52,633 nt of DNA, taken from the NCBI GenBank assembly GCA_001781035.1, contig MFKK01000034.1:1-52633 (forward strand). Direction: 5' to 3'. The position numbers were made by a program, and so were the translations under genes. Origin of the DNA: Candidatus Jorgensenbacteria bacterium RIFCSPLOWO2_01_FULL_45_25b (GTDB lineage: Bacteria; Patescibacteriota; Minisyncoccia; UBA6257; GWB1-50-10). Positions within the stretch are counted from its first letter, which is position 1. Every line of letters starts with the position of its first letter. The notes beneath the pieces were generated by a model. It saw only the letters and a program-made list of their open reading frames with translations. It ran no database searches and was not told where the DNA came from. Of the stretch, positions 2,770 through 50,631 are shown piece after piece.

Positions 2770-2781
2770 TGTGACATAATT

Positions 2782-3737: not shown

Positions 3738-5192
3738 ATGACTAAAAAACACGTACATTTTGTGGGGGTTGGAGGCATAGGAATGAGCTCTCTTGCCCGA
3801 TGGTATTTGGCTCAAAATTGGGCTGTTTCGGGGTCTGACCTCTCCCCCTCTGAAATTACCAAAGAGCTTGAAAAGGAGGGCGTACGGGTCAAAATTGGGC
3901 ACAATTCCTCAAATTTGCCTCAAAAATTGAATGTTTTGGTGTATAGCAACGCTCTTCCGCAGAATACCCCTGAAATTGAGGGGGCGCGGAAATTGGGGGC
4001 TTCTGTTGTGAGCTATTCCGAGGCGTTGGGCGCTATTGCCAAAACATATACGACGCTTGCGGTTGCGGGGTCGCATGGAAAGAGCACGACGACCGCGCTT
4101 TTAGGTTTGTGTCTTCTTTCGGGCGGTTTTGACCCAACCGTTATTGTCGGAACGAAGGTGAAAGAGTTCGGCGGGAAAAATTTTCGTTTTGGAGGAGGCA
4201 AGTTTTTTGCGCTTGAGGCGGATGAGTATAAGGGAGCGTTTTTTCAATATGTTCCAACCTCTCTTATTATCACGAACATTGATAAGGAGCATTTGGATTT
4301 TTACAAGACGTTCGCGAACGTGAAGAGGGCGTTTTTGAGGTTTCTTGGGCAGGCGGTGCCGGGTGGGAAGTTTGTTTTCAATAGAGACGATGCTGTTTTG
4401 TGGGGATTACGGGCGCAGATTTTGCGTATCGCGAAAACGAAGCATTCGGAGATTCTTTGGTATTCGCTTCACTCCCCCATGGCGAAGAAGATTGAGCGAG
4501 TGTTGCGAATTCCCGGCAGGCACAATGTTTCAAACGCGCTCGCGGTTTATACGCTTGCCCGCGCGCTTGGCGTATTGGAGAGACGGATTTTTTCTGTCTT
4601 CCGAACATTTTCCGGTACGTGGAGGAGGATGGAGTACTGTGGCGATCTAAGGATCGCCACCGCGGATGAGCGCGGACTTGTACGCGGAAAAACGCGGAAA
4701 GAAACAAATGTTGAGGTGTACGATGATTACGCGCATCATCCGACGGAAATAAAGGCGACACTCTCTGCTTTTAAGCAATCCCCGTTAGAAGCAAAGCTTC
4801 TAACGGGGCAAGCCGCGAACGAACGCAAAAAGCGGAAGATTGTGTGCGTGTTTCAGCCTCATCAGGCGCATCGATTAAAATCGCTTTTTAAGGAGTTTGT
4901 TGATTCATTTCAAGATGCGGACGGACTTATTCTTCTTCCAACGTATCAGGTTCCTGGTCGGGATATTGCTTTGGACAAGCGATATTCATCCGAGGCGCTC
5001 GCGAAAGCAATCATCAGAAAGTATCCCCGAAAGCGTGTGTTGTATCTTGAAGACCCAAAAAGGCTGAAAGAGGAGATTTTCAATATGTTGCGCGGACTCC
5101 CCTCTTCGGACGGAGTTTTGGTTATGATGGGAGCGGGAGACATTTTTCAATTAACTTCGGAGTTGATTAAAAAAAGAATCTCTAATATCTAA
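3738..5192 (+). CDS. murC: UDP-N-acetylmuramate--L-alanine ligase
   Basis: Motifs 'HFVGVGGIGMS', 'GSHGKSTT', 'DDYAHHPTEI' and 'VFQPH' are present. The last codons and the stop lie inside a heptamer-repeat element. Confidence 0.9.
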   Translation: MTKKHVHFVGVGGIGMSSLARWYLAQNWAVSGSDLSPSEITKELEKEGVRVKIGHNSSNLPQKLNVLVYSNALPQNTPEIEGARKLGASVVSYSEALGAIAKTYTTLAVAGSHGKSTTTALLGLCLLSGGFDPTVIVGTKVKEFGGKNFRFGGGKFFALEADEYKGAFFQYVPTSLIITNIDKEHLDFYKTFANVKRAFLRFLGQAVPGGKFVFNRDDAVLWGLRAQILRIAKTKHSEILWYSLHSPMAKKIERVLRIPGRHNVSNALAVYTLARALGVLERRIFSVFRTFSGTWRRMEYCGDLRIATADERGLVRGKTRKETNVEVYDDYAHHPTEIKATLSAFKQSPLEAKLLTGQAANERKKRKIVCVFQPHQAHRLKSLFKEFVDSFQDADGLILLPTYQVPGRDIALDKRYSSEALAKAIIRKYPRKRVLYLEDPKRLKEEIFNMLRGLPSSDGVLVMMGAGDIFQLTSELIKKRISNI

Positions 5193-5324
5193 TATCTAAT
5201 TTCTAAATCCTAAACAATTTCAAAATATTAATCTCAAAAACGTAGTTTGATAGGCTCATTATAAAGTTTTGAATTTTGACATTTGAGATTGTTTAGAAAT
5301 TGGGGTTTAGAAATTAGAGATTTT
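5176..5324. repeat. AATTTCT-family heptamer-repeat hairpin element filling the murC / nuclease-gene spacer
   Basis: The left arm is 'aatctctaatatctaatatctaatttctaaatcctaaacaatttcaaaat'. The right arm is 'attttgacatttgagattgtttagaaattggggtttagaaattagagatt', an imperfect inverted repeat of the left. Confidence 0.8.
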
Positions 5325-5325
5325 T

Positions 5326-9200: not shown

Positions 9201-9270
9201 GATTTATATTTTAGTTATCAATGGCTTTGGAAGAGATTGTAAAAAGGTTAGGTACTAGAAGTTTTATACA

Positions 9271-9412: not shown

Positions 9413-9445
9413 GTTTCTTTATTTTTTTAATTTTCAAATCGAATT

Positions 9446-20434: not shown

Positions 20435-20496
20435 TCTCTAAATCCTAATTTCTAAATTCTAAACAATCTCAAAATTCAAATAATCAAAAAACATTT
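20435..20496. repeat. AATTTCT-family half element filling the frr / rseP spacer
   Basis: The sequence 'caatctctaaatcctaatttctaaattctaaacaatctcaaaattcaaataatcaaaaaac' shows the same heptamers plus the 'AAACAAT.TCAAAA.TCAAAT' core as the other copies. Confidence 0.75.
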
Positions 20497-24297: not shown

Positions 24298-24497
24298 AGG
24301 GGGAACCGATAGTTCTCCCTGACTCTTAGTTAGGCTTTAGGCGTTAGGCTCTAGGACGACTAGTATAAGAAGCTAACGCTTCTTCCATTGTTGGGTCGCT
24401 CACTCCATTCGCTCTTTGAAACCTTGCGGTTTCAAAGCTTCCACCACAGGGGAACCGATAGTTCCCCTGACACCCCTCCTTCCAACAGCGTAAGAAG
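24298..24497. repeat. Duplicated rpsI 3'-end / hairpin region with an inserted TAGGCTT-type array
   Basis: 'aagaagctaacgcttcttcca(c/t)tgttggg' occurs at 24492-24520, where it includes the rpsI stop codon, and again at 24367-24395. 'gg(g)gaaccgatagttc(c/t)cc(c)tg' occurs at 24449-24469 and 24298-24321. 'taggctttaggcgttaggctctagg' lies at 24330-24354. Confidence 0.7.
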
Positions 24498-24992
24498 CTA
24501 ACGCTTCTTCCACTGTTGGGGTCTTCTTGCCTTTCGGAAGCCCGGTTTTTTGCGCTCAACTTCTCGGGAATCTCTTCGGAGATACCCCGATGTTTTTAAC
24601 GGAAGGCGCCATTTTTCGTTCAAAGCATTTAATGCTCTGGAGAGTCCGAGGCGTACTGCTTCCGCCTGACTGGATTCTCCTCCGCCGCTTACCTTCGCGG
24701 TCATTTTGAAGGCGACGCTTAAAAGATTTAAAGGAGAAATCGCGATTTGCAGAAGTTTTTCTTTTTTAAAGTAGTCTTTTAAGTGTTTTTCATTTATCTG
24801 AACTTCCATGTCTCCTCCCGATATTAGGCGCGGATTTTTTTCATCTCTTGTCGCGACATCCTTTAGCGGTTTTGACGTGCTCGGGTATATCCGCACTCTC
24901 GCGGTCGCGGCTTTTCTTCTTCCAATTCCTTCCACGTATCGGTCTTTATTTTTTGGTTTTTCAACTGGTTTTGTTTTTGCAATTAGTGCCAT
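24498..24992 (-). CDS. rpsI: 30S ribosomal protein S9
   Basis: The motif 'GIGRRKAATARV' and the C-terminus 'GFRKARRPQQWKKR' fit S9. I placed the start at ATG 24992, 5 nt after the rplM stop, not at the ORF-track start 25019. Confidence 0.9.
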   Translation of the reverse strand: MALIAKTKPVEKPKNKDRYVEGIGRRKAATARVRIYPSTSKPLKDVATRDEKNPRLISGGDMEVQINEKHLKDYFKKEKLLQIAISPLNLLSVAFKMTAKVSGGGESSQAEAVRLGLSRALNALNEKWRLPLKTSGYLRRDSREVERKKPGFRKARRPQQWKKR

Positions 24993-24996
24993 ACGT

Positions 24997-25356
24997 TTAT
25001 TCTTCAGTTTTTGAAACATTCTCTATAATCAATTTTTTTAGGCGTTTTGCCTGAAGTTTGTTTTTTGGAAGCATGAGGCGTACCGCTCTTCGCAATACCC
25101 ATGACGGGTCTTTTTCAAATTTTTTCGCGTACGAAACTTCTTTTAAGTGTCCGAGCGCTCCCGCGTGGCGGTAGTATATTTTTTGTTCCCGCTTTTTGCC
25201 CGATACTTCAATGTGTTCAATATTTTTTACGATTACCCGATTTGTTCCCTCTATTCTTTTCTCGTACGAAGGGATTGTTTTTCCCTGCAAAATAACCGCT
25301 ATTTCCGTAGCTAGTCTTCCTAAGCGTTTTCCTTTTGCGTTTATGTTGTAATCCAT
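24997..25356 (-). CDS. rplM: 50S ribosomal protein L13 (short form)
   Basis: The pattern 'GKRLGRLAT.IA..L.GK...Y' fits L13, and the gene lies upstream of rpsI as in the conserved rplM-rpsI pair. Confidence 0.85.
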   Translation of the reverse strand: MDYNINAKGKRLGRLATEIAVILQGKTIPSYEKRIEGTNRVIVKNIEHIEVSGKKREQKIYYRHAGALGHLKEVSYAKKFEKDPSWVLRRAVRLMLPKNKLQAKRLKKLIIENVSKTEE

Positions 25357-25545
25357 AAGTATTTAATCTCTAATCTCTAATTTCTAATCTCTAAATAATC
25401 TCAAAACTCAAATATCAAATGTTTAAATACTTTTACGTTTTAATTTCTAATTTCTAATTCCTAATTTCTAAACAATATAAAAACTCAAATATCAAATTAA
25501 AACATTAGGTTCCTGCGCGACTTGAGGTTCCCCCCCCGTGCCTTT
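25357..25545. repeat. Two tandem AATTTCT-family elements filling the rplQ / rplM spacer
   Basis: 'aatctctaatctctaatttctaatctctaaataatctcaaaactcaaatatcaaat' is followed by 'taatttctaatttctaattcctaatttctaaacaatataaaaactcaaatatcaaat'. Confidence 0.8.
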
Positions 25546-25896
25546 TTATACGAATTCAATTGTTGCTTTTTTGCTTCCGTCGCCGACCCTTCTTTCGGTA
25601 TGTTTGATGATTCTCGTGTATCCGCCCTTGCGGTCTTTATATCGTGGCGCGATTTCGTGATATATTTTATAAACTGTTTGTTTCGGCAGTTTGCTTAAAA
25701 GAAGGCGCATGGCGCCGATGTTTTGTTTTTTGCCGTGCGTTATGAGGCGTTCCACGAACCTTCTTGTTTCCTTCGCCCTCGTTTCGGTTGTCGTCATCTT
25801 TCCATGTTTAATAAGGTTTACCGCCAAACCTTGCAAGAAGGCCTTTCTTTGCCCCTTCTTTCTTCCAAATTTTTTTCCTTCTTTTAGATGTCTCAT
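25546..25896 (-). CDS. rplQ: 50S ribosomal protein L17
   Basis: 'MRHLKEGKKFGRKKGQRKA...' is the L17 N-terminus. The ATG is at 25896-25894. The ORF-track extension to 26103 overlaps rpoA. Confidence 0.9.
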   Translation of the reverse strand: MRHLKEGKKFGRKKGQRKAFLQGLAVNLIKHGKMTTTETRAKETRRFVERLITHGKKQNIGAMRLLLSKLPKQTVYKIYHEIAPRYKDRKGGYTRIIKHTERRVGDGSKKATIEFV

Positions 25897-25972
25897 GCTA
25901 TCTCGCCGAATAACGAATTTCGTACGAATGTACGAATTTTCCTGGATTCGTATTTGATTTGATATTCGTTGA
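25897..25972. repeat. ACGAATA-family repeat filling the rpoA / rplQ spacer
   Basis: The sequence is 'gctatctcgccgaataacgaatttcgtacgaatgtacgaattttcctggattcgtatttgatttgatattcgttgatta'. The two halves are inverted relative to each other. Confidence 0.75.
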
Positions 25973-26767
25973 TTATCCTTTTTTCTTCGCGGTTTTCTTT
26001 GTTTTTGGTTCCTTCTTCTTTTCTTCTTTTTCGGTTTCCTTTTCGGTTGTTTCCTCTGATATGTTCTGTTTTTCGAACACTTCGGATGAAAGCATTTGTT
26101 CAAAGTGTTCTTTCAGAACGCTTGTCGCTTTATGAAGAGCCTCACTTGGAGTTATTGAGCCGTCGGTTTCAATTTCCAGTTTTATTTTGTTGTAGTCCGT
26201 TTTTTCTCCGACGCGCATGTTTTCCACATCAACATCAACTCTCATCACTGGAGAAAAGATGGCGTCCAGAACAATCGTTCCTATGGAGAGCCGTTCCGTT
26301 CTTTTTTCTTCCGAGGGGATATACCCAAGCCCTCTTTCCACGACGATTTCCATGTCCAACTCGGCTGTTTTTTTGGTGAGTGTGGCGATGCGCAGTTCGG
26401 GGTTTACAATTTCCACAAACGAATTTGTTTTTATGTCTTCCGCCGTTATTTCTCCCTCCCCCTTACCTTTTAGCGAAAGAGTTTGAGGTTCCTCTGTAAA
26501 GAGTCTAAATCTTACTTTTTTTAAATTCAGCGTGAATTCCACGATGTCTTCCATCATTCCCGGAAGCGTGGAAAATTCATGGTCTATTCCCTTGATTTTT
26601 ATCTGGGTAATTGCCGCTCCCGGCAGAGAAGAAAGAAGAACTCTGCGGAGCGAGTTTCCTACTGTTTGACCGTATCCGGTGTATAATCCTTCAATCGTAA
26701 ATACTCCGACATTTTTTTGTTCGGATATTTTTTTTACGCTTACCGATTCGTATAATGATTGGTTCAT
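25973..26767 (-). CDS. rpoA: DNA-directed RNA polymerase alpha subunit, N-terminal domain only, with a Lys/Glu-rich tail
   Basis: The alpha-NTD motif 'GNSLRRVLLSSLPGAAI' is present. The protein is 264 aa and ends 'EKEEKKKEPKTKKTAKKKG'. No alpha-CTD-like helix-hairpin-helix segment is present. Confidence 0.85.
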   Translation of the reverse strand: MNQSLYESVSVKKISEQKNVGVFTIEGLYTGYGQTVGNSLRRVLLSSLPGAAITQIKIKGIDHEFSTLPGMMEDIVEFTLNLKKVRFRLFTEEPQTLSLKGKGEGEITAEDIKTNSFVEIVNPELRIATLTKKTAELDMEIVVERGLGYIPSEEKRTERLSIGTIVLDAIFSPVMRVDVDVENMRVGEKTDYNKIKLEIETDGSITPSEALHKATSVLKEHFEQMLSSEVFEKQNISEETTEKETEKEEKKKEPKTKKTAKKKG

Positions 26768-26802
26768 AATGTTTAAAAAAAATTCTATATATGTTTGTAT
26801 TA

Positions 26803-27405
26803 TTATCTGCGAGCGTAGAATTCGCCGACCAGGCTTACGTCAAACGGCGATGACGCCTTATCTATTTCCGGTTTCGCGACTATCTCTCCCTCATGATTTG
26901 ACGTACGACGCAACCACTTGGGTTCCGTGTATTGCTTAAGATATGTTTCTATGTCTTCAAACATCTTAAGCTTTCGGGATTCTTCTCTGATTCCGACCTT
27001 GTTTCCTATGCTTGTTATGTATGACGAAACAGTCACTTTTTTCTTGTTTACCGTAATGTGTCCGTGAGAAACGAGCTGGCGCGCGACTCTCGTGGATTTC
27101 GCGAATCCGAAAAGAAAGACTACCCTGTCAAGCCGTTTCTCAAGTGCCTCCATGATTTCTTCGCGCTCATTTGATTTAAATATGTTCGTCATTTGACGGT
27201 TGGTGAGCCCGTAGGTAATTTGAAGTTTTTGTTTTTCCTGGAATTGGCGCCCGAACTCCGAGAGCTGTTTTTTGCGTTTTGCTCCGTGTACTCCCGGCGC
27301 GTGAGGTCTGCGAATCATCGCGCATTTCGGTGAATTGCAACGATCCGCTTTCAAAAAGAGTTTTGTTCCAAGCGCGCGTTCTTTTTTTTCTTTTACATTT
27401 CGCAT
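26803..27405 (-). CDS. rpsD: 30S ribosomal protein S4
   Basis: 'ERRLD.VVF..GFA.T...ARQLV.HGHI.VN' is the S4 domain. The operon position fits. Confidence 0.9.
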   Translation of the reverse strand: MRNVKEKKERALGTKLFLKADRCNSPKCAMIRRPHAPGVHGAKRKKQLSEFGRQFQEKQKLQITYGLTNRQMTNIFKSNEREEIMEALEKRLDRVVFLFGFAKSTRVARQLVSHGHITVNKKKVTVSSYITSIGNKVGIREESRKLKMFEDIETYLKQYTEPKWLRRTSNHEGEIVAKPEIDKASSPFDVSLVGEFYARR

Positions 27406-27440
27406 ATCAACGAATAACGAATTAGTTACGAATAAGCGAA
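27406..27440. repeat. ACGAATA-family repeat filling the rpsK / rpsD spacer
   Basis: The sequence is 'atcaacgaataacgaattagttacgaataagcgaattag'. Confidence 0.7.
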
Positions 27441-27896
27441 TTAGACGCGACGAGGTTTTTTTTGTCTCGGGCCGTTATGCGGAATCGGTGTTATATCTTT
27501 TAAGAGGCTGATTTGGAAGCCCTTGCTCGCGAGCGCCCGAATTGCCGAATCTCTTCCGCTCCCAACTCCTTTTACGTATACCTCCACGTTTATGGGGCCT
27601 GTTTTTTGGGTTTTTTCCGCGATTGCTTCGGCTACTTTTGAGGCGGCAAACGGAGTTGCTTTTTTTGGTCCCGAGAAGCCGAGCGATCCCGCGGACATCC
27701 ACGTTACAACGTTCCCCTTCTCATCCGTTACCGTCATCATGGTGTTATTGTATGTTGCCTGGACGTAAATTTTTCCTCTGTCGTGCTTTCTTTTTCCGCT
27801 TTGTTTTTCCTTTTCAGCAGTAATGACACCCTCAACGGTTTCCCGTTCTTTTATCAGCTCCTCATTTGTTTTTTTTATGACTCGTTTCTTACCCAT
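27441..27896 (-). CDS. rpsK: 30S ribosomal protein S11
   Basis: The S11 core 'YVQATYNNTMMTVTD..GN...W.SAGS.GF.G.KK.TPFAA' is present, with a basic N-terminal extension. Confidence 0.9.
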   Translation of the reverse strand: MGKKRVIKKTNEELIKERETVEGVITAEKEKQSGKRKHDRGKIYVQATYNNTMMTVTDEKGNVVTWMSAGSLGFSGPKKATPFAASKVAEAIAEKTQKTGPINVEVYVKGVGSGRDSAIRALASKGFQISLLKDITPIPHNGPRQKKPRRV

Positions 27897-28009
27897 AATT
27901 AGGCTTTAGGCTCTAGGCAACTAGGCTTTAGGCTTTAGGCTTTAGGCTTTAGGCTTTAGAAGCCGTACGCCTAGTCCCTAACGCCTAGCGCCTAACGCCT
28001 AGCGCCTTT
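27897..28009. repeat. TAGGCTT-family heptamer hairpin filling the rpsM / rpsK spacer
   Basis: 'taggctttaggctctaggcaactaggc(tttaggc)x4' is followed by the inverted arm 'gcctagtccctaacgcctagcgcctaacgcctagcgcc'. Confidence 0.85.
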
Positions 28010-28393
28010 TTATTTTAATCCTACTTTTTTCTTTCCGCTTCCGGCTGTTTTTCTTACGTTTCCCCGAACTGTTCTTGAATTTGTTTTTGTTCGCTGGCCT
28101 CGGGAGGGCAAATTTCTCATGTGCCGTATTCCGCGATATGCTTTTATGTCTTTTAATCTCGCGATGTTGTTTTTTTTAACTTGCCTTAACTCTCCTTCAA
28201 TCGTGTGGTTTTTCGCGAGCATCCCCGCGATGTTACTTATTTCGTCTCCTGTCAATTCTTTTGCCCGCTTTTTTATATCAATACCTGTTTCTTTGATAAT
28301 TTTTTTCGCGGACATCAAACCAATGCCATATATATATGTAAGCGCGATTTCTACTTTTTTTTCATCCGGAATGTCTATGCCTTGAATTCTCAT
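28010..28393 (-). CDS. rpsM: 30S ribosomal protein S13
   Basis: The motifs 'RI.G.DIP..K....ALT.IYGIG' and 'YRG.RH...LP.RGQRT.TN.RT' are present. Confidence 0.9.
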   Translation of the reverse strand: MRIQGIDIPDEKKVEIALTYIYGIGLMSAKKIIKETGIDIKKRAKELTGDEISNIAGMLAKNHTIEGELRQVKKNNIARLKDIKAYRGIRHMRNLPSRGQRTKTNSRTVRGNVRKTAGSGKKKVGLK

Positions 28394-28394
28394 A

Positions 28395-28511
28395 TTATCC
28401 TTGTCGTTGTTTGTGTTTTGGATTTTTTTTACAAATAATCCGCACCCGCTTTTTTCTGCGGACTGTCTTGCAATCTTTACAAATTGTTTTTACGGATGCT
28501 CGTACCTTCAT
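28395..28511 (-). CDS. rpmJ: 50S ribosomal protein L36 (not in the ORF track; 38 aa)
   Basis: Manual translation of the minus strand gives [38 protein letters not shown]. This is the L36 signature, in the expected position between infA and rpsM. Confidence 0.9.
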
Positions 28512-28614
28512 TAGTTAGGCTTTAGGCTCTAGGCTCTAGGCAACTAGGCTTTAGGCTCTAGGCTTTAGAAGCCGTACGCCTATAGTCCCTAACGCCTAGC
28601 GCTTAACGCCTTTT
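28512..28614. repeat. TAGGCTT-family heptamer hairpin filling the infA / rpmJ spacer
   Basis: 'taggctttaggctctaggctctaggcaactaggctttaggctctaggctttagaagcc' is followed by 'gcctatagtccctaacgcctagcgcttaacgcc'. Confidence 0.85.
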
Positions 28615-28839
28615 TTAAAAACGACGGATGATGCGGCCCCGGATGTCGTTTATGTTTGACATTTCTACGGCAACCGTATCCCCTGCCACAATTCGGATTT
28701 TGTGGATTTTCATCTTGCCACCAAGGTGCGCAAGAATTTGCTTTTGCCCCTCCTTGGTCCGCAATGTTACCCTAAAAAGAAGCCCCGGAAGAGCTTCTTC
28801 CACGATTCCTTCTACTTTAATCGCCGACGTATTTTTCAT
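28615..28839 (-). CDS. infA: Translation initiation factor IF-1
   Basis: The 74-aa S1-like OB protein 'VEG.V.EALP...FRV.L..G....AH..GKM....IRI..GD.V.VE.S' fits IF-1. Confidence 0.9.
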   Translation of the reverse strand: MKNTSAIKVEGIVEEALPGLLFRVTLRTKEGQKQILAHLGGKMKIHKIRIVAGDTVAVEMSNINDIRGRIIRRF

Positions 28840-30648: not shown

Positions 30649-30819
30649 CAAAAAACCGCCCTGAAGCGATTTTTTGAGGCCCTACTCGTAGATGGCTTCC
30701 CGGCTAGTATCCAGGTGGATTCCCGCAGTCGTAAGTTCCCGGACGAACCAGCGAACTTGCGACTATGTAAGGATTCCTTTGTAAACCATTTAATCCGGAA
30801 AATCTGACAGAGTAGGGTT
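30649..30819 (-). promoter_or_regulatory. Structured ~170-nt leader or small RNA immediately upstream of metG
   Basis: An extended -10 'TGgTATAAT' (complement of 30826-30834) precedes an RNA whose ends pair (CCCUACUC / GAGUAGGG). Further helices follow: GUCAGAU/AUCUAC, UUUUCCGG/CCGGGAAG, and GUCGCAAGUUC/GAACUUACGAC. It ends in the hairpin 'AAAAAAUCGC UUCAGG GCGGUUUUUU', 45 nt before the metG ATG. Strand call: two G-U pairs favour minus and one favours plus. Confidence 0.35.
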
Positions 30820-33523: not shown

Positions 33524-33600
33524 ATTATCTCGCCGAATAACGAATTTTGTACGAATGAACGAATTTGTTTACTCGTATTTTATTTGTGTCATTAACTAGC
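33524..33600. repeat. ACGAATA-family repeat immediately upstream of aspS
   Basis: The sequence is 'tatctcgccgaataacgaattttgtacgaatgaacgaatttgtttactcgtatttta'. Its first ~25 nt match the element upstream of rplQ. Confidence 0.7.
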
Positions 33601-36008: not shown

Positions 36009-37169
36009 CTATAAGATAATGCCACCACCGAGGAGCTCGCCTTGTTTTGAATAGAAGACGGCGGACTGGCCGGAAGCTATTGCTTTTTGGGGGCTCTCAA
36101 AAATTAGTTGAAAGTTGAGAGTTGAAAGTTTATGGAGAGTTGCCAACACGAGAGGTTGGCGGTAACGGATGCGAGTTAAAAGTTGAAAGTTGAGAGTTGA
36201 AAGTTTTGTTTCAGTTTTTGGATTTATAAAATGGACGTTGGTGAGAATTAGTTCTTTGCGGTAGAGGGTTGGGTTTTCATCTCCTTCGGCGACTGTGATT
36301 GTGTTTGTTTTAAGGTCTTTTGCGGTTATGTAGTGAGGTTTTGTTTTGGGGGAGTTTGTTACCCGCAATTTTTTATTTTTTTCCCGCAAATCCAAACCGT
36401 GGCGCTGGCCTATGGTGTAGTAGTAAATTCCGTTATGAGTTCCCAAGATTTTTCCCTCGGTGTTTACGATGTTTCCTGGTTTTTGCGGAATGTATTCTTT
36501 TAAAAAGTCCTCCAGCGTTATGGAGCCCAAGAAGCAGATGCCTTGTGAGTCCTTTTTGTCGGCGGTTGGGAGGCCGGCTTTGCGGGCGATTTCTCTGACC
36601 TTCGGCTTTAGATAATCTCCTATCGGGAAGAGACAGTGTTTTAATTGATTTTGGGTTAGTGTCCAGAGGAAGTAGGATTGGTCTTTCGCACTATCGCGAG
36701 CGCTCATCAACGAATACCAAATTTTTTTTGAATTTACGAATTTACGAATACTGAATTTTTTTATTCGTTTATTCGTATTTGATTCGTTATTCGTTGATAA
36801 TTTTACATAATGGCCTGTTGCGATGAAATTCGCGCCCATCTTCAGGGCTTCGCGGAGAAATAAATCAAATTTAATTTCCTTGTTGCACATGACATCCGGA
36901 TTCGGCGTACTGCCGTTTTTGTACCCCTCAATCATGTATTCCACTACCCTCTTTTTGTATTCTTCTTCAAAATCAAACACATAGAAAGGTATTCCAAGAT
37001 GAGACGCGACACGGCGCGCGTCTTCCGCGTCCTTCTCGGCGCAACCATCAAGATTCAGGCAGCGCATGAAGACGCCTGTTACGTTGTATCCTTGTTTTTG
37101 TAATAACAAAGCGGCGACGGAGCTATCTACCCCGCCACTTAGGCCGACGAAGACTTTGTTTTTTCGCAT
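36009..37169 (-). CDS. mnmA: tRNA 2-thiouridine(34) synthase MnmA carrying repeat-derived in-frame segments
   Basis: Motifs 'GLSGGVDSSVAA', 'ATGHY', 'KDQSYFL' and 'SGQSAVFY...GGGII' are present. Relative to E. coli MnmA there are about 22 extra aa between ATGHYV and DSAKDQSYFL. Confidence 0.9.
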   Translation of the reverse strand: MRKNKVFVGLSGGVDSSVAALLLQKQGYNVTGVFMRCLNLDGCAEKDAEDARRVASHLGIPFYVFDFEEEYKKRVVEYMIEGYKNGSTPNPDVMCNKEIKFDLFLREALKMGANFIATGHYVKLSTNNESNTNKRIKKFSIRKFVNSKKIWYSLMSARDSAKDQSYFLWTLTQNQLKHCLFPIGDYLKPKVREIARKAGLPTADKKDSQGICFLGSITLEDFLKEYIPQKPGNIVNTEGKILGTHNGIYYYTIGQRHGLDLREKNKKLRVTNSPKTKPHYITAKDLKTNTITVAEGDENPTLYRKELILTNVHFINPKTETKLSTLNFQLLTRIRYRQPLVLATLHKLSTLNFQLIFESPQKAIASGQSAVFYSKQGELLGGGIIL

Positions 37170-37268: not shown

Positions 37269-37838
37269 ATGTTGTCGTATACGGATTTGAAACAGGGAAC
37301 GATTTTTGTGCGAGACGGAGAGCCGTGCCGTGTGTTGGAATACGAGTTTATTCGGATGCAACAGAGAAAACCCGTTGTTCAGCTAAAGATTCGGAAGCTG
37401 ATTTCGGGAAAGGCTATTCCCATGACGGCGTATCCCAGCGACACGTTTGAGGAGGCGGAAATTTCAACCGGAGAGGCGCGGTTTATTTATGAGAGCCGGG
37501 GAACATATTGGTTTCATCCTGTCGGGAATCCAAAAGAACGCTTTTCACTTACGGCGGATGCTATCGGAGAACAGGTGAAGTTTTTAAAACCCGGCATTCA
37601 GATTAAGGCTTTTCGTTTTGGTGAACAGATTATCGCCGTAGAATTGCCCGTGAAGATAGAGGTTGCGGTTACGGAGGCTCCTCCTTCGGTACGGGGCAAT
37701 ACCGCGCAGGGCGGGATGAAGACTGTTACGGTTGAGACGGGCGCGAAGGTTTTAACCCCCCTTTTTATTGAATCAGGAGACTTGATTCGGGTGAACACGC
37801 AGACGGGAGAGTATTCGGAGAGGGCGCAGAAGAGTTGA
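37269..37838 (+). CDS. efp: Elongation factor P
   Basis: The 189-aa protein begins 'DLKQGTIF..DGEPCRVLE' and contains 'VETG..V.VPLFI..GD.I.V.T..GEY..R'. Confidence 0.9.
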   Translation: MLSYTDLKQGTIFVRDGEPCRVLEYEFIRMQQRKPVVQLKIRKLISGKAIPMTAYPSDTFEEAEISTGEARFIYESRGTYWFHPVGNPKERFSLTADAIGEQVKFLKPGIQIKAFRFGEQIIAVELPVKIEVAVTEAPPSVRGNTAQGGMKTVTVETGAKVLTPLFIESGDLIRVNTQTGEYSERAQKS

Positions 37839-37903
37839 AAGTTGAAAGTTGAAAGTTGAAAGTTGAAAGTTGAAAGTTGAAAGTTGAAAGTTGAAAGTTG
37901 ACA
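37834..37903. repeat. Tandem array (GTTGAAA)x9 plus GTTGACA; contains the efp stop codon
   Basis: The array is a perfect 7-nt periodicity over 63 nt. The efp TGA (37836-37838) lies inside the first unit. Confidence 0.95.
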
Positions 37904-37941
37904 ACATTTTTCTGATTATTTATCAGGTGTCAAGTTTATTT

Positions 37942-39786: not shown

Positions 39787-39927
39787 GTTTTTATTATAGC
39801 AGATAACTTCATTTGACCCCGTTAGAAAGAACAAATATTATTCTGTCTTTATATACTCTTCTTGTTGCGACACAGGGGGACTTTCTAACGGGGTTTGACT
39901 TTTTTTCGTTTTTTATGTTTAGTTTAT

Positions 39928-40430
39928 GGGCGAGTATATCAGGCAATAGCTCCGCTTTTGCGGAGAGGAAAGTCCGGACACTCGGCCTTATGCGCGGCAC
40001 AAGGAAATTCTAATTTCTAATCTCTAAACCGACCGAAATTCGCAGTCAGTTTAGAATTTAAGATATTAGATATTAGGATTTTCTCGTGCTGTGCGTGAGG
40101 CAAGGGTAGCGGGTAATGCCCGTCGTCCGCGAGGATAGAGGTGCGAACAGAGACGTCTGGGCGCGAAAGCGCCTAGAGAGCCCAATCCTAAGCTAGATGG
40201 CTTAATTCCGCCATAGGGAGAAAAAAGCGGAAGTGAAACGGTCCCGACGTTTCAGTCGGGACTCCGACCTCGTAAGAGTGTCGGATGCTAAATCCTTACT
40301 TGAGTGCAAGGTCGCGCCAGCAGTGCTCCGCACTGGTTGGAGAACCGCTTGATCTTGAGGGCAACCGAGAGACCAGATAAATTATTGCCGCTCTTTTGAG
40401 TACAGAATCCGGCTTACGATATACTCGCCC
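39928..40430 (+). ncRNA. rnpB: RNase P RNA (bacterial type A-like) with insertions
   Basis: P1 pairs 'GGGCGAGUAUAUC' with 'GAUAUACUCGCCC'. The P4 strands are 'GAGGAAAGUCCGGAC' and 'ACAGAAUCCGGCUUA'. A terminator 'CCCCCUUCGGGGGUUUUGUUUU' follows. At ~503 nt it is longer than the usual 350-400 nt. Confidence 0.9.
40003..40083. repeat. AATTTCT-family hairpin inserted inside RNase P RNA
   Basis: 'ggaaattctaatttctaatctctaaac ... gtttagaatttaagatattagatattaggattttc' sits on the stem GCACAAG/CUCGUGC, shortly 3' of the P4 5' strand. Confidence 0.8.
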
Positions 40431-40447
40431 CCTTCGGGGGTTTTGTT

Positions 40448-43440: not shown

Positions 43441-44545
43441 ATTTATTTAACGCTGTAATTCCTGGAAGAGTTTTACCGGAGAGATAATCAAGCATGGCGC
43501 CACCACCCGTCGAAATGTATAGATTTCGCAAATCCGAAATCCGAAATCCGAAATCCGAAACTAATTTGATTGAAGCAGTGGTTTCGCCACCGCCGACAAG
43601 CGAAAAGGCGGTTTTATTTTTGATGATAGCCTGCCACACGCCTTTTGTGCCTTTCTCATAGCCGTGTTTTTCAAACATGCCTATCGGGCCGCTCCAGATA
43701 ATGGTTTTTGATTCGGAGATGATGTTTGCGAACTTTTGAATTGTTTTTGGACCAATATCAAGAATTTTGTTGTCGTGAAACTTAATATCTTCGGGCAGAA
43801 GAATGTTGTTGTAAAGGAGATAGTCTTTAATATCTTTGACCTCATCAACGATGGAGTTCTTGACGTCTTCGCCCCGAGCTTTTAAGAAGGTGTTTGCCAA
43901 TCCCCCGCCAATCAGAATGGTGTTCGCTTTTTCTTTGAAATACTTAATAATATCGCCTTTATCTTTTATTTTTATACCTCCCAAGATGAGGGTGAGCGGA
44001 GGTTCGTATGTTTTCACCGCGCGCTCCAAATGTTCTATTTCTTTTTCCAAAAGCAATCCTCCGTAGAAGGGCAGAAATTTTGTGATGGCGCACACAGAGG
44101 CGTTTTCACGATGGGAGACGGCGAAGGCGTCGTTTATGTAGATGTCGCCGAGACCAGCCAGTTCTTTCGCAAAGTTTATATCGTTTGCTTCTTCGCGAAA
44201 GTCAAAGCGGAGGTTTTCAAAGAGAACTATTTGAGTTTTTGTTTGTACTTCCCTCCTTTCGGGATTACAATAAGGGAAGAAGCCTACTTTTGAACCGACT
44301 TTTTTCGCGAGCAATTTGGCGAACGGTCTTAGGGAGAGTTTTTTGTCTTTTCCCTCGGGTCTGCCCCGGTGGCTTATGATGTGAATACGACACCCAAGCT
44401 TTTGCAGAAAGCGTATTGTCGGGATGGTGGAATCCAAGCGGTACATTTCTTCTTTTGTCTTTGTGTTGATGTTTAAGTCAACGCGCAAAAGGCATGTTTT
44501 TCCCGCTATGTTTTCGGGGTTGATGGCTGAAAGGTAGTTAATCAT
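43439..44545 (-). CDS. pgk: Phosphoglycerate kinase, with a heptamer repeat in the C-terminal region
   Basis: Motifs 'RVDLN', 'SHRGRP' and 'STGGGA' are present. I placed the start at ATG 44545 ('MINYLSA...'), not at the ORF-track 44623. Confidence 0.9.
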   Translation of the reverse strand: MINYLSAINPENIAGKTCLLRVDLNINTKTKEEMYRLDSTIPTIRFLQKLGCRIHIISHRGRPEGKDKKLSLRPFAKLLAKKVGSKVGFFPYCNPERREVQTKTQIVLFENLRFDFREEANDINFAKELAGLGDIYINDAFAVSHRENASVCAITKFLPFYGGLLLEKEIEHLERAVKTYEPPLTLILGGIKIKDKGDIIKYFKEKANTILIGGGLANTFLKARGEDVKNSIVDEVKDIKDYLLYNNILLPEDIKFHDNKILDIGPKTIQKFANIISESKTIIWSGPIGMFEKHGYEKGTKGVWQAIIKNKTAFSLVGGGETTASIKLVSDFGFRISDLRNLYISTGGGAMLDYLSGKTLPGITALNK

Positions 44546-46450: not shown

Positions 46451-46483
<33 letters not shown>

Positions 46484-46497
46484 GTGAGCCGACATCG

Positions 46498-48160: not shown

Positions 48161-48830
48161 CTCCATCGTTAACCTTCTCGCATCGGTCAGGTGTCACCCC
48201 CTATACATCCTCTTACGAGTTCGCAGGGAGCTGTGTTTTTGTTAAACAGTCGCCAGAGAAACTTTCGCTGCGGGCGTGCTTACGCGCGCCAGGCCTTATC
48301 CCGAAGTTACGGCCGCTTTTTTGCCGAGTTCCTTAACGAGGACTCACCCGTTCCCCTTGGGCTTCTCGCCCTATCCACCTGTGGCGGTTTCCGGTACGGA
48401 TTCCATACTTCAACCTTAGAGGTTTTTCTTGAACGCGCGCTCTATCAACTTGCGTCGACACGTATGCCAACACTTGCCTCTACTCTGGAGTTTGCGACTA
48501 AACGCAGAGACGCGGATTTGCCTACGCCTCACTCTCGAGTCAAGGATGCCAAACCATTAAGACACTTAATGTACTGCGCGTTGTCCCCCCATCGGACTAT
48601 GAAATACGGAAGGGCTGGAATATTAACCAGCTGTCCATCAGCTTCGGCTTTCGCCATTGCCTTAGGGCCGCCTCACCCTCCGCCGATTCGCGTTGCGGAG
48701 GAAACCTTGGATTTTCGGGGAGCCGGTTTTTCACCGACTTTGTGATTACTCATGCCAGCATTCTCTCTTCCTAACGCTCCAGTCGCCCTCACGGATCAAC
48801 CTTCAGCGCATTAGGAATGCTCTCCTACCA

Positions 48831-49008
48831 CGCCTCGCGCTTTGCGCGAGGAAATCCTAAGCTCTAAATTCTAAATCCTAAACAATATCAAAACTCAAAT
48901 GACCGAAACTCAAAACATTTTGTTTTAAGTGTTTGGATTTTGAATTTAAAATTTGTTTAGAGTTTAGAGATTAGAATTTAGAATTTCCTTGTGCAAAGCA
49001 CAAGACAT
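48831..49008. repeat. Intervening sequence at 23S helix 45 built from an AATTTCT-family hairpin
   Basis: Between the conserved 'CCGAAG' and 'GGUAGGAGAGC' blocks lie three hairpins: CUUGUGC-UUU-GCACAAG, a ~140-nt heptamer-repeat hairpin, and CCUCGCGC-AAA-GCGCGAGG. Confidence 0.8.
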
Positions 49009-49684
49009 TCGCATCTTCGGTACCTTGCTTAGCCCCGGTAAATTTTCGGCGCCATCATCCTCGAATAGTGAGTTGTTACACACTCTTTAAAGGATGGCTA
49101 CCTCTGAGCCAACCTCCTATCTGTTTATGGATAATGACCACCTTTCACACTTAGCAACTCCGATACCCTTGCGGAGATCGGAGTCCCGACTTCACGTCGG
49201 GAGAATTTAGGGACCTTAGATGGCGATCTGGGCTCTTCCCCTCTCGACCACGGAGCTTAGCCCCCGCAGTCTGACTGCTAATGAACAACTCATGGTATTC
49301 GGAGTTTGATTGATCGTCCGAGCTTGCGCCCAGTGACGATCATCCAGTGCTCTACCCCCACGAGTCTATTTAATTAACGCTAGCCCGAAAGCTATTTCGG
49401 AGAGAACCAGCTATTACCAAGTTCGATTAGTTTTTCGCTCCTTACCCCAATTCATCCGAGAGTTTTGCACGGCTCACCGGTTCGGACCTTCATTCGATTT
49501 TACTCGAACTTCATCCTGATCAGGGCAAGCTCACCTGGTTTCGGGTCTTACACGTACTGCTTAATCGCCCTATTAAGACTCGCTTTCGCTACGCCTCCTC
49601 CCGCTTGGCGGGATTAGACTTGCAACACATGCAAACTCGCTGGCTCATTCTTCAATAGGCACGCCGTCACTCGCCGTTGCACAG

Positions 49685-49846
49685 CAGCGGAATTTCTAAT
49701 TTCTAATCTCTAATTTCTAAACAAACCCAAATGATAGAATGACTAATGACTAAAACAATTTAAGTTTAGACATTACACATTTTGACATTAGAAATTTATT
49801 AGATATTAGTAATTAGGAATTAGTTATTCCGATGCTGCGCATCGGT
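49685..49846. repeat. Intervening sequence at 23S helix 25, hairpin cassette copy 1
   Basis: The cassette reads 'gcacagcagcgg aatttctaatttctaatctctaatttctaaac ... gatagaatgactaatgactaaaacaattta ... attagaaatttattagatattagtaattaggaatt ... ccgatgctgcgc'. Confidence 0.85.
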
Positions 49847-50202
49847 TGAGCTCCGGCTCTTTGTAAGTAAGTGGTTTCAGATACTATTTCATCGCCCTCA
49901 CCGGGCTGCTTTTCACCTTTCCCTCACGGTACTGGTTCACTATCGATCACCAAATGTATTTAGCCTTACCAGATAGTACTGGCAGATTCCCTCAAGGTTA
50001 TCTTGGCCTTGAGGTACTCAAGAACAAGAACGATTGGTCACTTTGTTTTCGCCTACGAGGCTTTCACTCACTATGGCTGTCCTTTCCAGAACATTTGACT
50101 AACAAAGTGATTTGTAACCAATTACCAAATAAACTTCCGTAGCTCCGGAAATTTCCGAAGCTTCAGAAGTTTTTTGGAATGTTCTCGCCTTACAACCCCC
50201 GC

Positions 50203-50374
50203 CGCTGCACAGCAGCGGAATTTCTAATCTCTAATTTCTAATCTCTAATTTCTAAATAAATCCGAATGATAGAATGACTAATGACTAAAACAATTTACGT
50301 TTAGACATTTAAGCATTTTAACATTAGAAATTTATTAGATATTAGTAATTAGAAATTCCGATGCTGTGCATCGA
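50203..50374. repeat. Hairpin cassette copy 2 in 23S domain I (E. coli ~270-280)
   Basis: It has the same base stem, heptamer arms and central 'gatagaatgactaatgactaaaacaattta' core as 49685-49846. On the rRNA strand it lies just 3' of 'GUAGCGGCGAGCGAA..CAGCCC'. Confidence 0.85.
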
Positions 50375-50474: not shown

Positions 50475-50631
50475 CCACTGCGTAGCAGCGGAATTTCTAA
50501 TTTCTAATATCTAATTTCTAAATAAATCCGAATGATAGAATGACTAATGACTAAAACAATTTACGTTTAGACATTAGAAATTTATTAGATATTAGTAATT
50601 AGGAATTAGTTATTCCGATGCTACGCACTGG
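50475..50631. repeat. Hairpin cassette copy 3 in 23S domain I (E. coli ~140)
   Basis: It is the same cassette, lying between 'CCGAAUGGGAAAACCC..' and 'GGGAACUGAAACAUCUAAGUA' on the rRNA strand. Confidence 0.85.

Follow-up and report, generated by a model that had tools for sequence, protein, structure and literature searches.

Tandem arrays of seven-nucleotide units are known from the intergenic DNA of several bacterial groups, for example GGGAATC in Xanthomonas, GGGGAYT in Nostoc and TAACTGA in Beggiatoaceae, cyanobacteria and Bacteroidetes (PMC4679880, PMC4692102). Such heptameric simple sequence repeats (SSRs) can stand upstream of start codons, including those of ribosomal-protein operons (PMC4679880), and STRRs have been reported inside cyanobacterial RNase P RNA genes (Vioque 1997). 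Rickettsia palindromic elements (RPEs), about 100-150 bp long, inhabit a reduced genome, where they insert in frame in housekeeping ORFs and also occur in non-coding RNA and between genes, with no transposase known (PMC10969869); the same source gives Correia elements as repeats that are cut by RNase III in mRNAs. In 23S rRNA, helices 25 and 45 are sites of intervening sequences (IVSs) that RNase III excises (PMC2672173), and short ORF-less insertions, presumed to be IVSs, have been reported at these sites in CPR bacteria (PMC11270868).

We compared these systems with the repeats in a contig of Candidatus Jorgensenbacteria RIFCSPLOWO2_01_FULL_45_25b (MFKK01000034.1, assembly GCA_001781035.1), the whole 52,633 nt of which we call the window. 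Like STRRs and other heptameric SSRs, they consist of tandem 7-nt units, fall into several families per genome, show a strong intergenic bias, vary in length among close relatives, occasionally form inverted pairs, and stand directly upstream of starts (also in ribosomal-protein operons) and in the RNase P RNA gene. On the other hand, the unit sequences and the phylum are different (the window is from a CPR bacterium), the arrays are typically paired as arms of a single long hairpin whose clamps and loops are conserved non-repeat sequence, and elements also lie in 23S rRNA and in frame in ORFs. RPEs are alike in size, in genomic setting and in the range of their sites, but their arms are not tandem heptamers, no sequence relationship is expected, and the window copies are mostly intergenic or in rRNA. 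As in the 23S IVSs (helices 9, 25 and 45), ORF-less extended stem-loops take the place of helix tips, whereas no classical IVS is known to belong to a repeat family that is spread over the genome and also fills operon spacers. REP, BIME and REPIN sequences and MITEs (Correia, ERIC, BOX) are likewise dispersed, co-transcribed intergenic hairpins with terminal inverted repeats, some known members of which undergo RNase III cleavage or affect how stable the mRNA is; the window elements, however, are much longer than REPs, mostly AT-rich, internally periodic in their arms and not confined to extragenic DNA, and they have no visible target-site duplication, RAYT or parent IS. A preliminary description of this DNA had likened the repeats to STRRs and REPs, which is apt in view of the tandem 7-nt units, the several families, the intergenic enrichment, the inverted arms and the RNase P copy. 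It had also supposed them unreported for such genomes, and our literature searches found no paper that links CPR bacteria with heptamer repeats.

The best reading, to which we give a probability of about 0.6, is that the operon spacers hold lineage-specific, non-autonomous palindromic hairpin repeats that colonised a Paceibacteria-type CPR genome, that is, MITE-, RPE- or IVS-like repeats whose arms grow by STRR-like heptamer slippage.

Period-7 repeats across the window

Tandem Repeats Finder placed period-7 arrays in the operon region at 28516-28568, 27899-27959 and 27977-28007, and further ones at 25364-25394, 25441-25471 and 24330-24355. A strict lag scan of the window gave 13 runs at lag 7, with the harmonic lag 14 as the sole other lag with repeats. 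With looser settings there were 25 runs at lag 7, 0-3 at other lags within 4-13, 19 at lag 14 and 3 at lag 15; first-order Markov simulations gave a mean of 0.49 runs and a maximum of 4, compared with the 25 observed. The period-7 repeats are real and well beyond chance. Spacer enrichment, which the preliminary description implied, holds across the window: arrays cover 9.06% of the intergenic bases and 0.35% of the coding bases, and 13 of the 18 arrays outside RNA genes are intergenic, where the intergenic share of that DNA is 10.9% (P = 1.5e-9).

The three unit families named earlier (TAGGCTT, ACGAATA and AATTTCT) are too few, since the window also has AGTTGAA, AAATCCG and AAGACTC. The elements share one design, an inverted pair of arms in which each arm is a run of 7-nt units, and a unit consists of a 5-nt complementary core and two variable positions (e.g. 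UAGGC/GCCUA or CUAAU/AUUAG). Complete elements, with their non-repetitive clamps and loops, recur in many places: between cistrons, at gene 3' ends, in the variable helices of 23S rRNA, in RNase P RNA and as in-frame segments of ORFs. What was presented as a feature of one operon is thus found window-wide.

Spacers of the ribosomal-protein operon

The operon lies on the minus strand and comprises infA (28615-28839), rpmJ (28395-28511), rpsM (28010-28393), rpsK (27441-27896), rpsD (26803-27405), rpoA (25973-26767), rplQ (25546-25896), rplM (24997-25356) and rpsI (24498-24992). Every one of its spacers had been described as filled. This is true of all those longer than 35 nt, but the rpsD-rpoA spacer (26768-26802, 35 nt) is free of repeats, and rpmJ-rpsM and rplM-rpsI are junctions of just 1 nt and 4 nt.

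The infA-rpmJ spacer (28512..28614, minus strand) folds into a single hairpin with (UAGGCGY)n in the 5' arm and (UARAGCC)n in the 3' arm (-45.2 kcal/mol, z -2.75); outside the stem, 3 nt are unpaired on the stop-codon side and 5 nt on the AUG side. The spacer is unchanged in 8 other assemblies. A homologous TAGGCTT hairpin, 88% identical and with the same loop, makes up the rpsM-rpsK spacer (27897..28009, minus strand; -60.7 kcal/mol, z -4.81). For these two spacers, Tandem Repeats Finder and folding bear out the TAGGCTT arrays and hairpins of the preliminary description, and the stems begin 2-3 nt past the stop codon and finish 4-5 nt before the start codon. In all, 24 of the 26 spacers folded from the window and its relatives form one enclosing hairpin, and the well-folded ones leave 0-5 nt unpaired past the stop codon and 4-14 nt ahead of the start codon. 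Occupancy from stop to start is almost exact for the stems. In rplQ-rplM, 47 non-repeat nucleotides come first.

The ACGAATA family had been counted among the heptamer repeats. Motif comparison shows that TTCG motifs are spaced 8-11-7 in all of its copies, so that it is a dispersed palindromic repeat and not a tandem heptamer. The rpsK-rpsD spacer (27406..27440, minus strand) has, by this spacing, the 3' half only of the palindrome, compared with a full 88-nt hairpin in the relative L018 (94% RpoA identity). By folding and motif spacing, the rpoA-rplQ spacer (25897..25972, minus strand) holds a degenerate hairpin of the same family with the conserved 3' end AAATTCGTTATTCGGCGAGATA, followed by 2-3 nt and the ATG. 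The ACGAATA spacer hairpins in the window are weak (z -0.9 and -1.35).

In the rplQ-rplM spacer (25357..25508, minus strand), Tandem Repeats Finder detects two tandem half-elements (UUUGAKN)n(UUAGARA)n, which are the 3' half of an AT-rich hairpin family. They fold via G.U pairs and on the sense strand only (-11.3 and -14.8 kcal/mol, compared with -3.4 and -4.1 antisense). Finally, a (CCUARAG)n array of 3'-arm type (24329..24355, minus strand), seen in the sequence and by Tandem Repeats Finder, had been listed as an operon spacer; it sits in the rpsI 3' UTR and not between cistrons. The 3' end of rpsI is duplicated here; the array lies within the duplicate, and the terminator hairpin follows just downstream.

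Potentially, the units could be binding sites in RNA, arrayed at about 7 nt per protein subunit for translation control, with cold-shock proteins, S1-type OB folds or a HutP-like UAG-N4 reader as candidates. Many sense-strand units do read UAG or UAA plus 4 nt, as in (UAGGCGY)n, (UARAGCC)n and (UUAGARA)n; of the spacers with a single-arm array directly upstream of a start, 7 of 8 have it in the purine-rich UUAGRAA orientation; and a similar role has been proposed for TAACTGA repeats, with each CspB protein reportedly binding one heptamer (PMC4679880). However, the ACGAATA, AGTTGAA, AAATCCG and GGTCCTA families have no UAG motif and most arrays are sequestered in stems. Since copies also occur within rRNA and ORFs, a dedicated operator role is unlikely, and we regard the whole explanation as improbable.

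Copies in structural RNAs and protein genes

Four heptamer hairpins interrupt the 23S rRNA gene on the minus strand. One lies between E. coli positions 130 and 178 (helices 9-10; 50480..50630), a second copy of it just after position 270 (50200..50372) and a third between positions 540 and 548 (helix 25; 49680..49842). The clamp TGCRYAGCATCGGAAT...ATTCCGCTGCTRYGCA and the loop recur in all three, which have 87% column identity with indels of whole 7-nt units and lack visible target-site duplications. The fourth, between positions 1162 and 1186 (helix 45; 48830..49009), belongs to a subfamily with the clamp GCACAAGGAAAT... and folds at -78.6 kcal/mol. A hairpin of the helix-45 subfamily, which has GCACAAGGAAATTCTAA...CTCTAAAC in common with the helix-45 copy, occurs in the RNase P RNA (39995..40090, plus strand; gene at 39931-40431, Rfam RF00010 score 94.9 bits, compared with a gathering score of 100). 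The alignment to RF00010 places it within a 156-nt insertion in a hairpin loop.

Among the protein genes, mnmA contains a full ACGAATA palindrome in frame at about aa 130-154 (36740..36810, minus strand), a stretch that has no alignment to MnmA in the PDB and that some Paceibacteria homologues have and others do not, and two (TTCAACT)n arrays (36105..36205, minus strand), each encoding KLSTLNFQL. In tgt, a (TTCAACT)n array is an 11-aa insertion (18728-18752, minus strand) and a palindrome is another of about 25 aa (18989-19067, minus strand); in pgk, an in-frame (CGGATTT)4 array encodes SDFGFRISD, a 6-aa insertion (43526..43562, minus strand). All these in-frame copies are insertions relative to solved homologues of MnmA, TGT and PGK, and the ORFs stay intact. 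Other copies lie at the edges of genes: a full AT-rich hairpin contains the murC stop codon in its 5' arm (5176..5325, plus strand; -42.9 kcal/mol), with outer arms (CTAATNT)n/(TTAGARA)n and inner arms (TCAAAAN)/(TTTGAKN); the first unit of an (AGTTGAA)10 array provides the efp stop codon (37830..37904, plus strand); an ACGAATA-family 3' module stands directly upstream of a class II aminoacyl-tRNA synthetase gene (33524..33583, minus strand); and an AT-rich half-element fills the rseP-frr spacer (20435..20496, minus strand).

Could each array have grown where it stands, by 7-nt slippage with no copying between loci, and have become a hairpin through inverted duplication by template switching? 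Copies do differ in arm length by whole 7-nt units, the MnmA array peptide KLSTLNFQL resembles the ancestral KLKTKNYKL at that position, and in many prokaryotes heptanucleotides are reported to outnumber the other classes of long SSR, which has been attributed to polymerase slippage in work cited in PMC4679880 and PMC4692102. On the other hand, clamps, loops and the 8-11-7 spacing are common to distant loci, members of the same family in the window have more than 30 nt of non-periodic sequence in common, and the AGTTGAA heptamer is present at four unrelated loci. Moreover, at the exact 130/178 site of the 23S rRNA, the strain variant L147, whose flanks are 99.7% identical, has a different element, that is, the whole element was replaced between near-identical strains. 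The common non-repeat sequence argues for copies, not independent microsatellites, and we hold purely local growth to be very improbable.

The presence of the same repeats in 23S rRNA, RNase P RNA and protein genes makes it most likely that the elements are "selfish" mobile DNA, able to survive where a self-contained hairpin is harmless. Whole elements would reach new sites as copies, through transposition or recombination, replication slippage would alter the number of units, and intrastrand template switching may maintain the complementarity of the arms. Among the window genes, we found no IS-type transposase or RAYT as a mobilising enzyme, only two tyrosine recombinases. Copies would persist wherever a self-contained stem-loop does no harm, and the elements are probably tolerated because the stem reunites its two insertion ends, including stop and start codons. 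In a structured RNA, a helix tip would remain a helix tip after the insertion; in the operon, the stem would keep the upstream stop, which precedes it by 0-5 nt, next to the start codon 4-14 nt beyond it, so that a ribosome terminating there and opening the stem at its base could still re-initiate and translational coupling would be preserved. In transcripts, the imperfect duplexes of 30-60 bp are probable substrates of RNase III (not encoded in the window). By analogy with classical intervening sequences, the 23S copies would be excised, and cleavage between cistrons may split the polycistronic mRNA; changes in expression, if any, would then be a by-product, not the reason for the elements' existence.

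Relatives, strains and assemblies

Relatives at 74-94% RpoA identity have the same kind of hairpin in this operon, in partly different spacers and with other units, so the spacers are not random low-complexity sequence, the finding that would have told against the preliminary description. At 74-77% identity, L020, L143, L144 and L145 have heptamer repeats in the operon (GGTCCTA, CTAGNNN, ATTCGCA and GTCATTG units), mostly as hairpins, although L145 has a short array only; relatives at 70% identity or less have no heptamer elements there. Hairpins of TAGGCTT units also occur in unrelated contigs of 32-68% GC, which neither vertical descent nor simple slippage explains.

The regular filling of this operon might also mean that the hairpins were domesticated as punctuation, i.e. 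kept by selection because RNase III processing, transcript stability or translational coupling at them determines how strongly the cistrons are expressed relative to one another. This takes up the preliminary description, which had named mRNA segment stabilisation, processing sites and differential expression as possible roles. The occupation of every spacer above 35 nt almost exactly from stop to start points this way, as does the spc operon of another genome, L039, with the same pattern, and the cleavage of Correia elements offers a precedent. The ACGAATA family has stayed at the rpoA-rplQ junction in the window, in L018 and in L143 despite deep divergence (74-100% RpoA identity), with a conserved 3' module beside the AUG, and eight population samples show no variation in the spacers; function could be an alternative cause of both. 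Against this, the occupied spacers and the unit families vary among relatives (at places where the window has elements, the genes of L020, L144 and L145 overlap or lie 0-9 nt apart), and the same elements lie in ORFs, rRNA and RNase P RNA and beside unrelated genes. The full hairpins fold equally well on both strands, hence selection at the RNA level is not demonstrated. Judged from these sequence comparisons, the differences in occupancy among close relatives and the swaps of elements between strains fit mobile, largely neutral DNA better than a regulatory design, and we consider punctuation unlikely.

Note that several short contigs (L019, L151 and L158) end inside repeats, as might be expected if the repeats were an assembly or sequencing artefact of low-complexity regions. 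The chance of this is negligible: related but distinct elements occur in other genomes, in-frame copies leave ORFs intact, and the spacers are identical in eight or more assemblies made independently, from different samples and with different pipelines, which refutes the artefact. The one population variant has a single additional TAAAGCC unit (7 nt) in the rpsM-rpsK hairpin, while eight other assemblies are identical.

Heptamer repeats in the ribosomal-protein operon and across the window

The infA-rpmJ-rpsM-rpsK-rpsD-rpoA-rplQ-rplM-rpsI cluster lies on the minus strand of the window, with a promoter-like site upstream of infA (28885-28857, promoter scan) and a hairpin and T run downstream of rpsI. 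From infA to rpsI, its junctions measure 103, 1, 113, 35, 35, 76, 189 and 4 nt. Using Tandem Repeats Finder, we found arrays of period 7 in the infA-rpmJ, rpsM-rpsK and rplQ-rplM spacers and after rpsI. The hairpins of the first two spacers are homologous (88% identity across 95 nt); both have a 5' arm (UAGGCGY)n and a 3' arm (UARAGCC)n, and their predicted folds reach -45.2 kcal/mol (z -2.75) for infA-rpmJ and -60.7 kcal/mol (z -4.81) for rpsM-rpsK. The rplQ-rplM spacer contains two tandem half-elements, (UUUGAKN)n(UUAGARA)n. In the rpsK-rpsD and rpoA-rplQ spacers we see the ACGAATA repeat, in all copies of which the TTCG motifs are spaced 8-11-7, and this spacing rules out a tandem heptamer. 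Thus, of the three heptamer families named in the preliminary description, TAGGCTT and AATTTCT are indeed tandem repeats of 7 nt, whereas ACGAATA is a dispersed 8-11-7 repeat. That every spacer of the operon is filled was an overstatement, since the rpsD-rpoA spacer (35 nt) is without any repeat.

The TAGGCTT-type array after rpsI lies inside the second copy of a duplication: the 3' end of rpsI and a terminator-type hairpin recur approximately 130 nt downstream (24298-24520), with the motifs CAACA(G/A)TGGAAGAAGCGTTAGCTTCTTA and CAGGG(G/A)GAACTATCGGTTCCCC. The ACGAATA element is closed by a conserved module, AAATTCGTTATTCGGCGAGATA, with an ATG 2-3 nt further on, at 25897-25918 and 33524-33545 of the window and at 100-122 and 1625-1649 of L018, a contig of a close relative. 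The genes that follow it are rplQ, rpsD and one for a class II aminoacyl-tRNA synthetase. In L143, the contig of another relative, a related module precedes rplQ and rpsI, and a shorter variant ending in TTGAT precedes frr; all genes downstream of the module and its variants are translation genes. The module may carry a weak ribosome-binding signal of the GAG type or a regulatory site. A weak match to 6S RNA on the minus strand (30678-30818; 24.1 bits, E = 0.019, gathering score 46.4 in Rfam) lies in the structured spacer between adk and metG, one block of which is conserved in L143 as well. Rfam gave no match for positions 9150-9500.

When the whole window of 52.6 kb was scanned by strict autocorrelation, repeats appeared only at lag 7 and at its harmonic 14. 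With a looser scan we found 25 arrays at lag 7, compared with a mean of 0.49 in simulated sequences, 0-3 at the other lags from 4 to 13, 19 at lag 14 and 3 at lag 15. The idea that such repeats favour spacers and fall into families holds in the window: the arrays cover 9.06% of the intergenic, 0.35% of the coding and 3.86% of the structural-RNA bases, of the 18 arrays outside RNA genes, 13 lie between genes (intergenic share of that DNA 10.9%, P = 1.5e-9), and there are at least five unit types, several of them forming families. The arrays are spread through the whole window, beside unrelated genes such as murC, rseP-frr, comEC-mnmA, efp and a P-type ATPase gene.

AATTTCT arrays at 1217-1320 stand directly upstream of the first of two adjacent tyrosine recombinase genes; these and the genes for two coupling-protein ATPases of the VirD4/TrwB type are found at 7749-9200, 37942-39834 and 1405-3729. 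Just upstream of rnpB there is an 88-nt palindrome, GACCCCGTTAGAAAG...CTTTCTAACGGGGT (39813-39900), with a 98.9%-identical copy elsewhere in the same organism (4254-4340 of L147, a contig of a strain variant). We count this palindrome as a further dispersed repeat, which may serve as a promoter or terminator module.

Copies in RNA genes and in open reading frames

The 23S rRNA gene is 4665 nt long, against 2925 nt of the Rfam model. Alignment to the E. coli 23S rRNA places repeat insertions at E. coli positions 130/178 in helices 9-10 (window 50480-50630), just after 270 (50200-50372), at 540/548 in helix 25 (49680-49842) and at 1162/1186 in helix 45 (48830-49009). The first three are copies of one element (87% column identity). 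They have terminal inverted repeats, TGCGCAGC...GCTGYGCA, and a common clamp, TGCRYAGCATCGGAAT...ATTCCGCTGCTRYGCA, and they differ by whole 7-nt units; no direct repeats are visible at the flanks of these three sites. The helix-45 copy forms a second subfamily with an element that lies within a 156-nt insertion in a hairpin loop of the RNase P RNA (39931-40431). Because of this insertion the RNase P RNA scores 94.9 bits, just under the Rfam threshold of 100. Could the arrays have arisen by purely local microsatellite growth? Clamps and loops that are common to separate copies speak against it, and we regard it as highly improbable: judged by their sequences, the relationship between the copies extends past the periodic part.

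At 130/178, 540/548 and 1162/1186, an extended stem-loop stands in place of the helix tip (helices 9, 25 and 45), as in intervening sequences (IVSs) of 23S rRNA; the predicted folding energies are between -48 and -79 kcal/mol. IVSs at helices 25 and 45, the classical sites, are excised by RNase III (PMC2672173); no rnc gene is found in the window. A survey of CPR rRNA genes described many short insertions without ORFs at such sites, presumed to be IVSs, and made no mention of repeats or hairpins (PMC11270868). These "uncharacterised" insertions (PMC11270868) would gain an identity as members of a genome-wide population of hairpin repeats; the component phenomena have precedents, and the function is a proposal.

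The gene carries further insertions. A GC-rich palindrome of 224 nt without heptamers, at E. coli 1854/1889 (window 47945-48168, predicted fold -113 kcal/mol), is a different kind of IVS-like hairpin. An insertion of 834 nt, presumably a group I intron, lies at E. coli 2502/2503 (46497-47332) and encodes a LAGLIDADG_2 homing endonuclease (ORF 46637-47218 on the minus strand, E = 1.8e-42). In the stretches 45912-50779 and 51201-51824, the 5S and 23S rRNA genes are adjacent, and upstream of the 23S gene there is a PCMT methyltransferase gene and no 16S rRNA gene, so that the rRNA genes appear to be unlinked.

Three proteins contain translated repeats. In mnmA we find a complete ACGAATA palindrome in frame and two (TTCAACT)n arrays, each encoding KLSTLNFQL; TGT has a palindromic insertion of approximately 25 aa and an 11-aa insertion from (TTCAACT)n; and PGK has (CGGATTT)4 inside its ORF. 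Compared with PDB homologues, these segments are insertions or local replacements. Some Paceibacteria homologues have the palindrome-derived segment of MnmA (TNKRI...FVNS), and others lack it. Another Paceibacteria MnmA, P0123, has a serine-rich insertion with extra residues within SSGSSSHSLGITHSSSLGVS (alignment columns 57-73), which resembles a short-period repeat translated in frame and suggests that ORFs with inserted repeats are frequent in this clade.

Genomes of CPR/Patescibacteria are viewed as streamlined and repeat-poor. To those who see them in this way it will be surprising that one kind of repeat makes up ~9% of the window's intergenic DNA and is also present in the RNase P RNA, in three or more housekeeping ORFs and at four sites of the 23S rRNA gene, the only one seen. 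The repeats affect the annotation of metagenome-assembled genomes, in that the RNase P RNA falls below the Rfam gathering score and proteins are lengthened; they also break short-read assemblies, and several contigs end within them.

Turnover among relatives, strains and populations

The source organism belongs to the Patescibacteria, is of the Paceibacteria/Minisyncoccia type and stands near Jorgensenbacteria. Its close relative L018 (94% RpoA identity) has ACGAATA elements in the rpsK-rpsD and rpoA-rplQ spacers and a repeat-free rpsD-rpoA spacer, as in the window; where the window has a half-element of 35 nt, L018 has the full hairpin of 88 nt. Relatives with 74-77% RpoA identity (contigs L143, L144, L020/L021 and L145) have heptamer repeats in this operon too, which is syntenic, and for the most part these are hairpins, with a short array only in L145; the short arrays of L020 were missed by a first, stricter scan and found by reading the spacers. 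In these relatives the occupied junctions are partly different, the units are GGTCCTA, CTAGNNN, ATTCGCA, GTCATTG and ATTAGAA, and at several junctions where the window has an element, the genes overlap or lie 0-9 nt apart. No period-7 arrays were found in the genome-collection relatives with at most 70% RpoA identity (L001-L017), which bound the distribution of the elements but are of no use for comparing spacers.

In the strain variant L147 the flanks are 99.7% identical, yet a different element, of the helix-45 type, occupies the exact helix 9-10 site. The operon hairpins are identical in eight independent assemblies, and one population sample has exactly one additional TAAAGCC unit. These comparisons exclude an assembly or sequencing artefact, to which we give a negligible chance. 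They show, as far as sequences can, slippage by whole units and rapid swapping of whole elements: copies change in 7-nt steps and are gained, lost and exchanged between close relatives.

On the other hand, some features of the elements would fit a selected role as "punctuation". The ACGAATA element persists at rpoA-rplQ across 74-100% RpoA identity, its conserved 3' module abuts the AUG, and the operon hairpins are invariant in the population samples. With the turnover of the elements and the copies in ORFs and rRNA weighed against these points, we consider such a role possible but unlikely.

Architecture, proposed origin and wider occurrence of the elements

The elements are 60-180 nt long and mostly AT-rich. 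A complete AT-rich element, such as that at 5176-5325, consists of outer arms (CTAATNT)n/(TTAGARA)n, inner arms (TCAAAAN)n/(TTTGAKN)n and a loop between them; the rplQ-rplM and rseP-frr spacers contain its 3' half only. The true heptamer unit is a complementary core of 5 nt (UAGGC/GCCUA, CUAAU/AUUAG) and two variable positions, and the predicted stems are therefore segments of 5-6 bp split by a regular mismatch. Most units contain TAG or TAA, so that three units close all three reading frames, and the stop codons of efp and murC fall within the first array units; the units inside ORFs (TTCAACT, CGGATTT) are without stops on the sense strand. Full hairpins fold equally well on both strands; folding is specific to the sense strand in half-elements alone, perhaps simply because these are rich in G and U. 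A covariation test on seven copies of the ACGAATA hairpin, with two of the sequence ranges ill-chosen, gave one compensatory pair only; as MAFFT is also unreliable on periodic arms, we draw nothing from this result. The UAG-N4 pattern and the biased orientation of those single-arm arrays that precede start codons could point to arrays of protein-binding sites, read 7 nt per step, but such sites would not cover all families, and we find this explanation very unlikely.

The terminator scan left the heptamer hairpins unflagged, and start codons follow directly after them, so that they do not qualify as intrinsic terminators; its only hit in the repeat-filled spacers is a weak inner stem of the ACGAATA element (25919-25936). 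A promoter role of the AT-rich elements was also rejected, as the scan predicted no promoter in them.

We propose that the elements are non-autonomous mobile or recombining palindromes, the arms of which would grow by slippage; the excess of heptamer SSRs in general is attributed to polymerase slippage in literature cited in PMC4679880 and PMC4692102. They occur only where a stem-loop can be accommodated, and the stem would re-join the ends of its insertion. Among the folded spacers of the window and its relatives, 24 of 26 were reported as one enclosing hairpin in the predictions; in the well-folded ones, 0-5 nt separate the stop codon from this hairpin, and 4-14 nt separate the hairpin from the start codon. 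If a terminating ribosome melts the stem at its base, the start site next to it would thus become exposed, and stem rejoining may explain how a junction that measures 0-4 nt in relatives can bear an insertion of 100 nt. RNase III probably acts on stems of such length, in analogy to IVSs and Correia elements. To the overall picture of mobile palindromes that are grown by slippage, re-joined by their stems and cut by RNase III we give a probability of roughly 0.6; the coupling step and the RNase III step are each less certain. It offers a testable rule of persistence, namely a self-closing stem that restores the original geometry, tightly coupled stop-start junctions included.

In their behaviour the elements are a hybrid of STRR-type SSRs, palindromic repeats of the RPE (Rickettsia palindromic element) or MITE type and 23S IVSs, and they join three phenomena that are usually treated separately. 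With STRRs they share the 7-nt tandem unit (TAGGCTT, AATTTCT, AGTTGAA and AAATCCG, but not ACGAATA), several unit types per genome, an intergenic excess and the presence in rnpB. Canonical STRR units are CCCCAGT, TTGGTCA and CAACAGT and their hosts are cyanobacteria, whereas here we see TAGGCTT, AATTTCT and others in a patescibacterial host. As in MITEs, there are terminal inverted repeats and dispersed near-identical copies (the three 23S copies, the helix-45/RNase P pair); a Pfam search of the 52.6-kb window found two tyrosine recombinases and no IS-type transposase. REP/BIME elements are GC-rich imperfect palindromes of ~20-40 nt, strictly extragenic and tied to the REP-associated transposase RAYT. 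The elements described here, with their greater length, AT-richness and copies inside RNA genes and ORFs, are not of this kind. In-frame ORF insertions (MnmA, TGT, PGK) and RNA-gene copies (rnpB, 23S) are shared with RPEs, as a functional analogy only. We were not able to find, in the literature searched, a paper that pairs CPR with heptamer repeats or contains these repeat strings.

A metagenome scan with (GCCTARA)3GCC matched at least 120 contigs of 29-72% GC. The bare heptamer is not diagnostic, because several of these contigs carry arrays of AAACCCT, a telomere-type repeat, and look eukaryotic. Among the matches listed, 14 contigs have an inverted TAGGC arm nearby, and only these are comparable. 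Since hairpins armed with TAGGCTT/AAGCCTA occur in unrelated contigs of 32-68% GC, one may read these "heptamer-armed palindromes" as a new self-propagating class that has spread across phyla and was co-opted in CPR as transcript punctuation, which seems to us distinctly unlikely. If it were true, rRNA IVSs, the RNase P expansion and intercistronic RNase III sites would be one family, and stems would bridge stop and start codons such that translational coupling survives insertions of at least 100 nt.

One of the 14 contigs with an inverted arm, L039 (44% GC), is an spc ribosomal-protein operon that has TAGGC-armed hairpins between rplE and rpsN and between rplR and rpsE, as well as a (CTAAAAG)n hairpin between rplO and secY. 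Hairpins with TAGGCTT/AAGCCTA arms are also present in L036, L057, L089, L120, L127 and other contigs of 63-68% GC that are clearly unrelated to CPR; at least the hairpin of L036 appears to lie between convergent genes.
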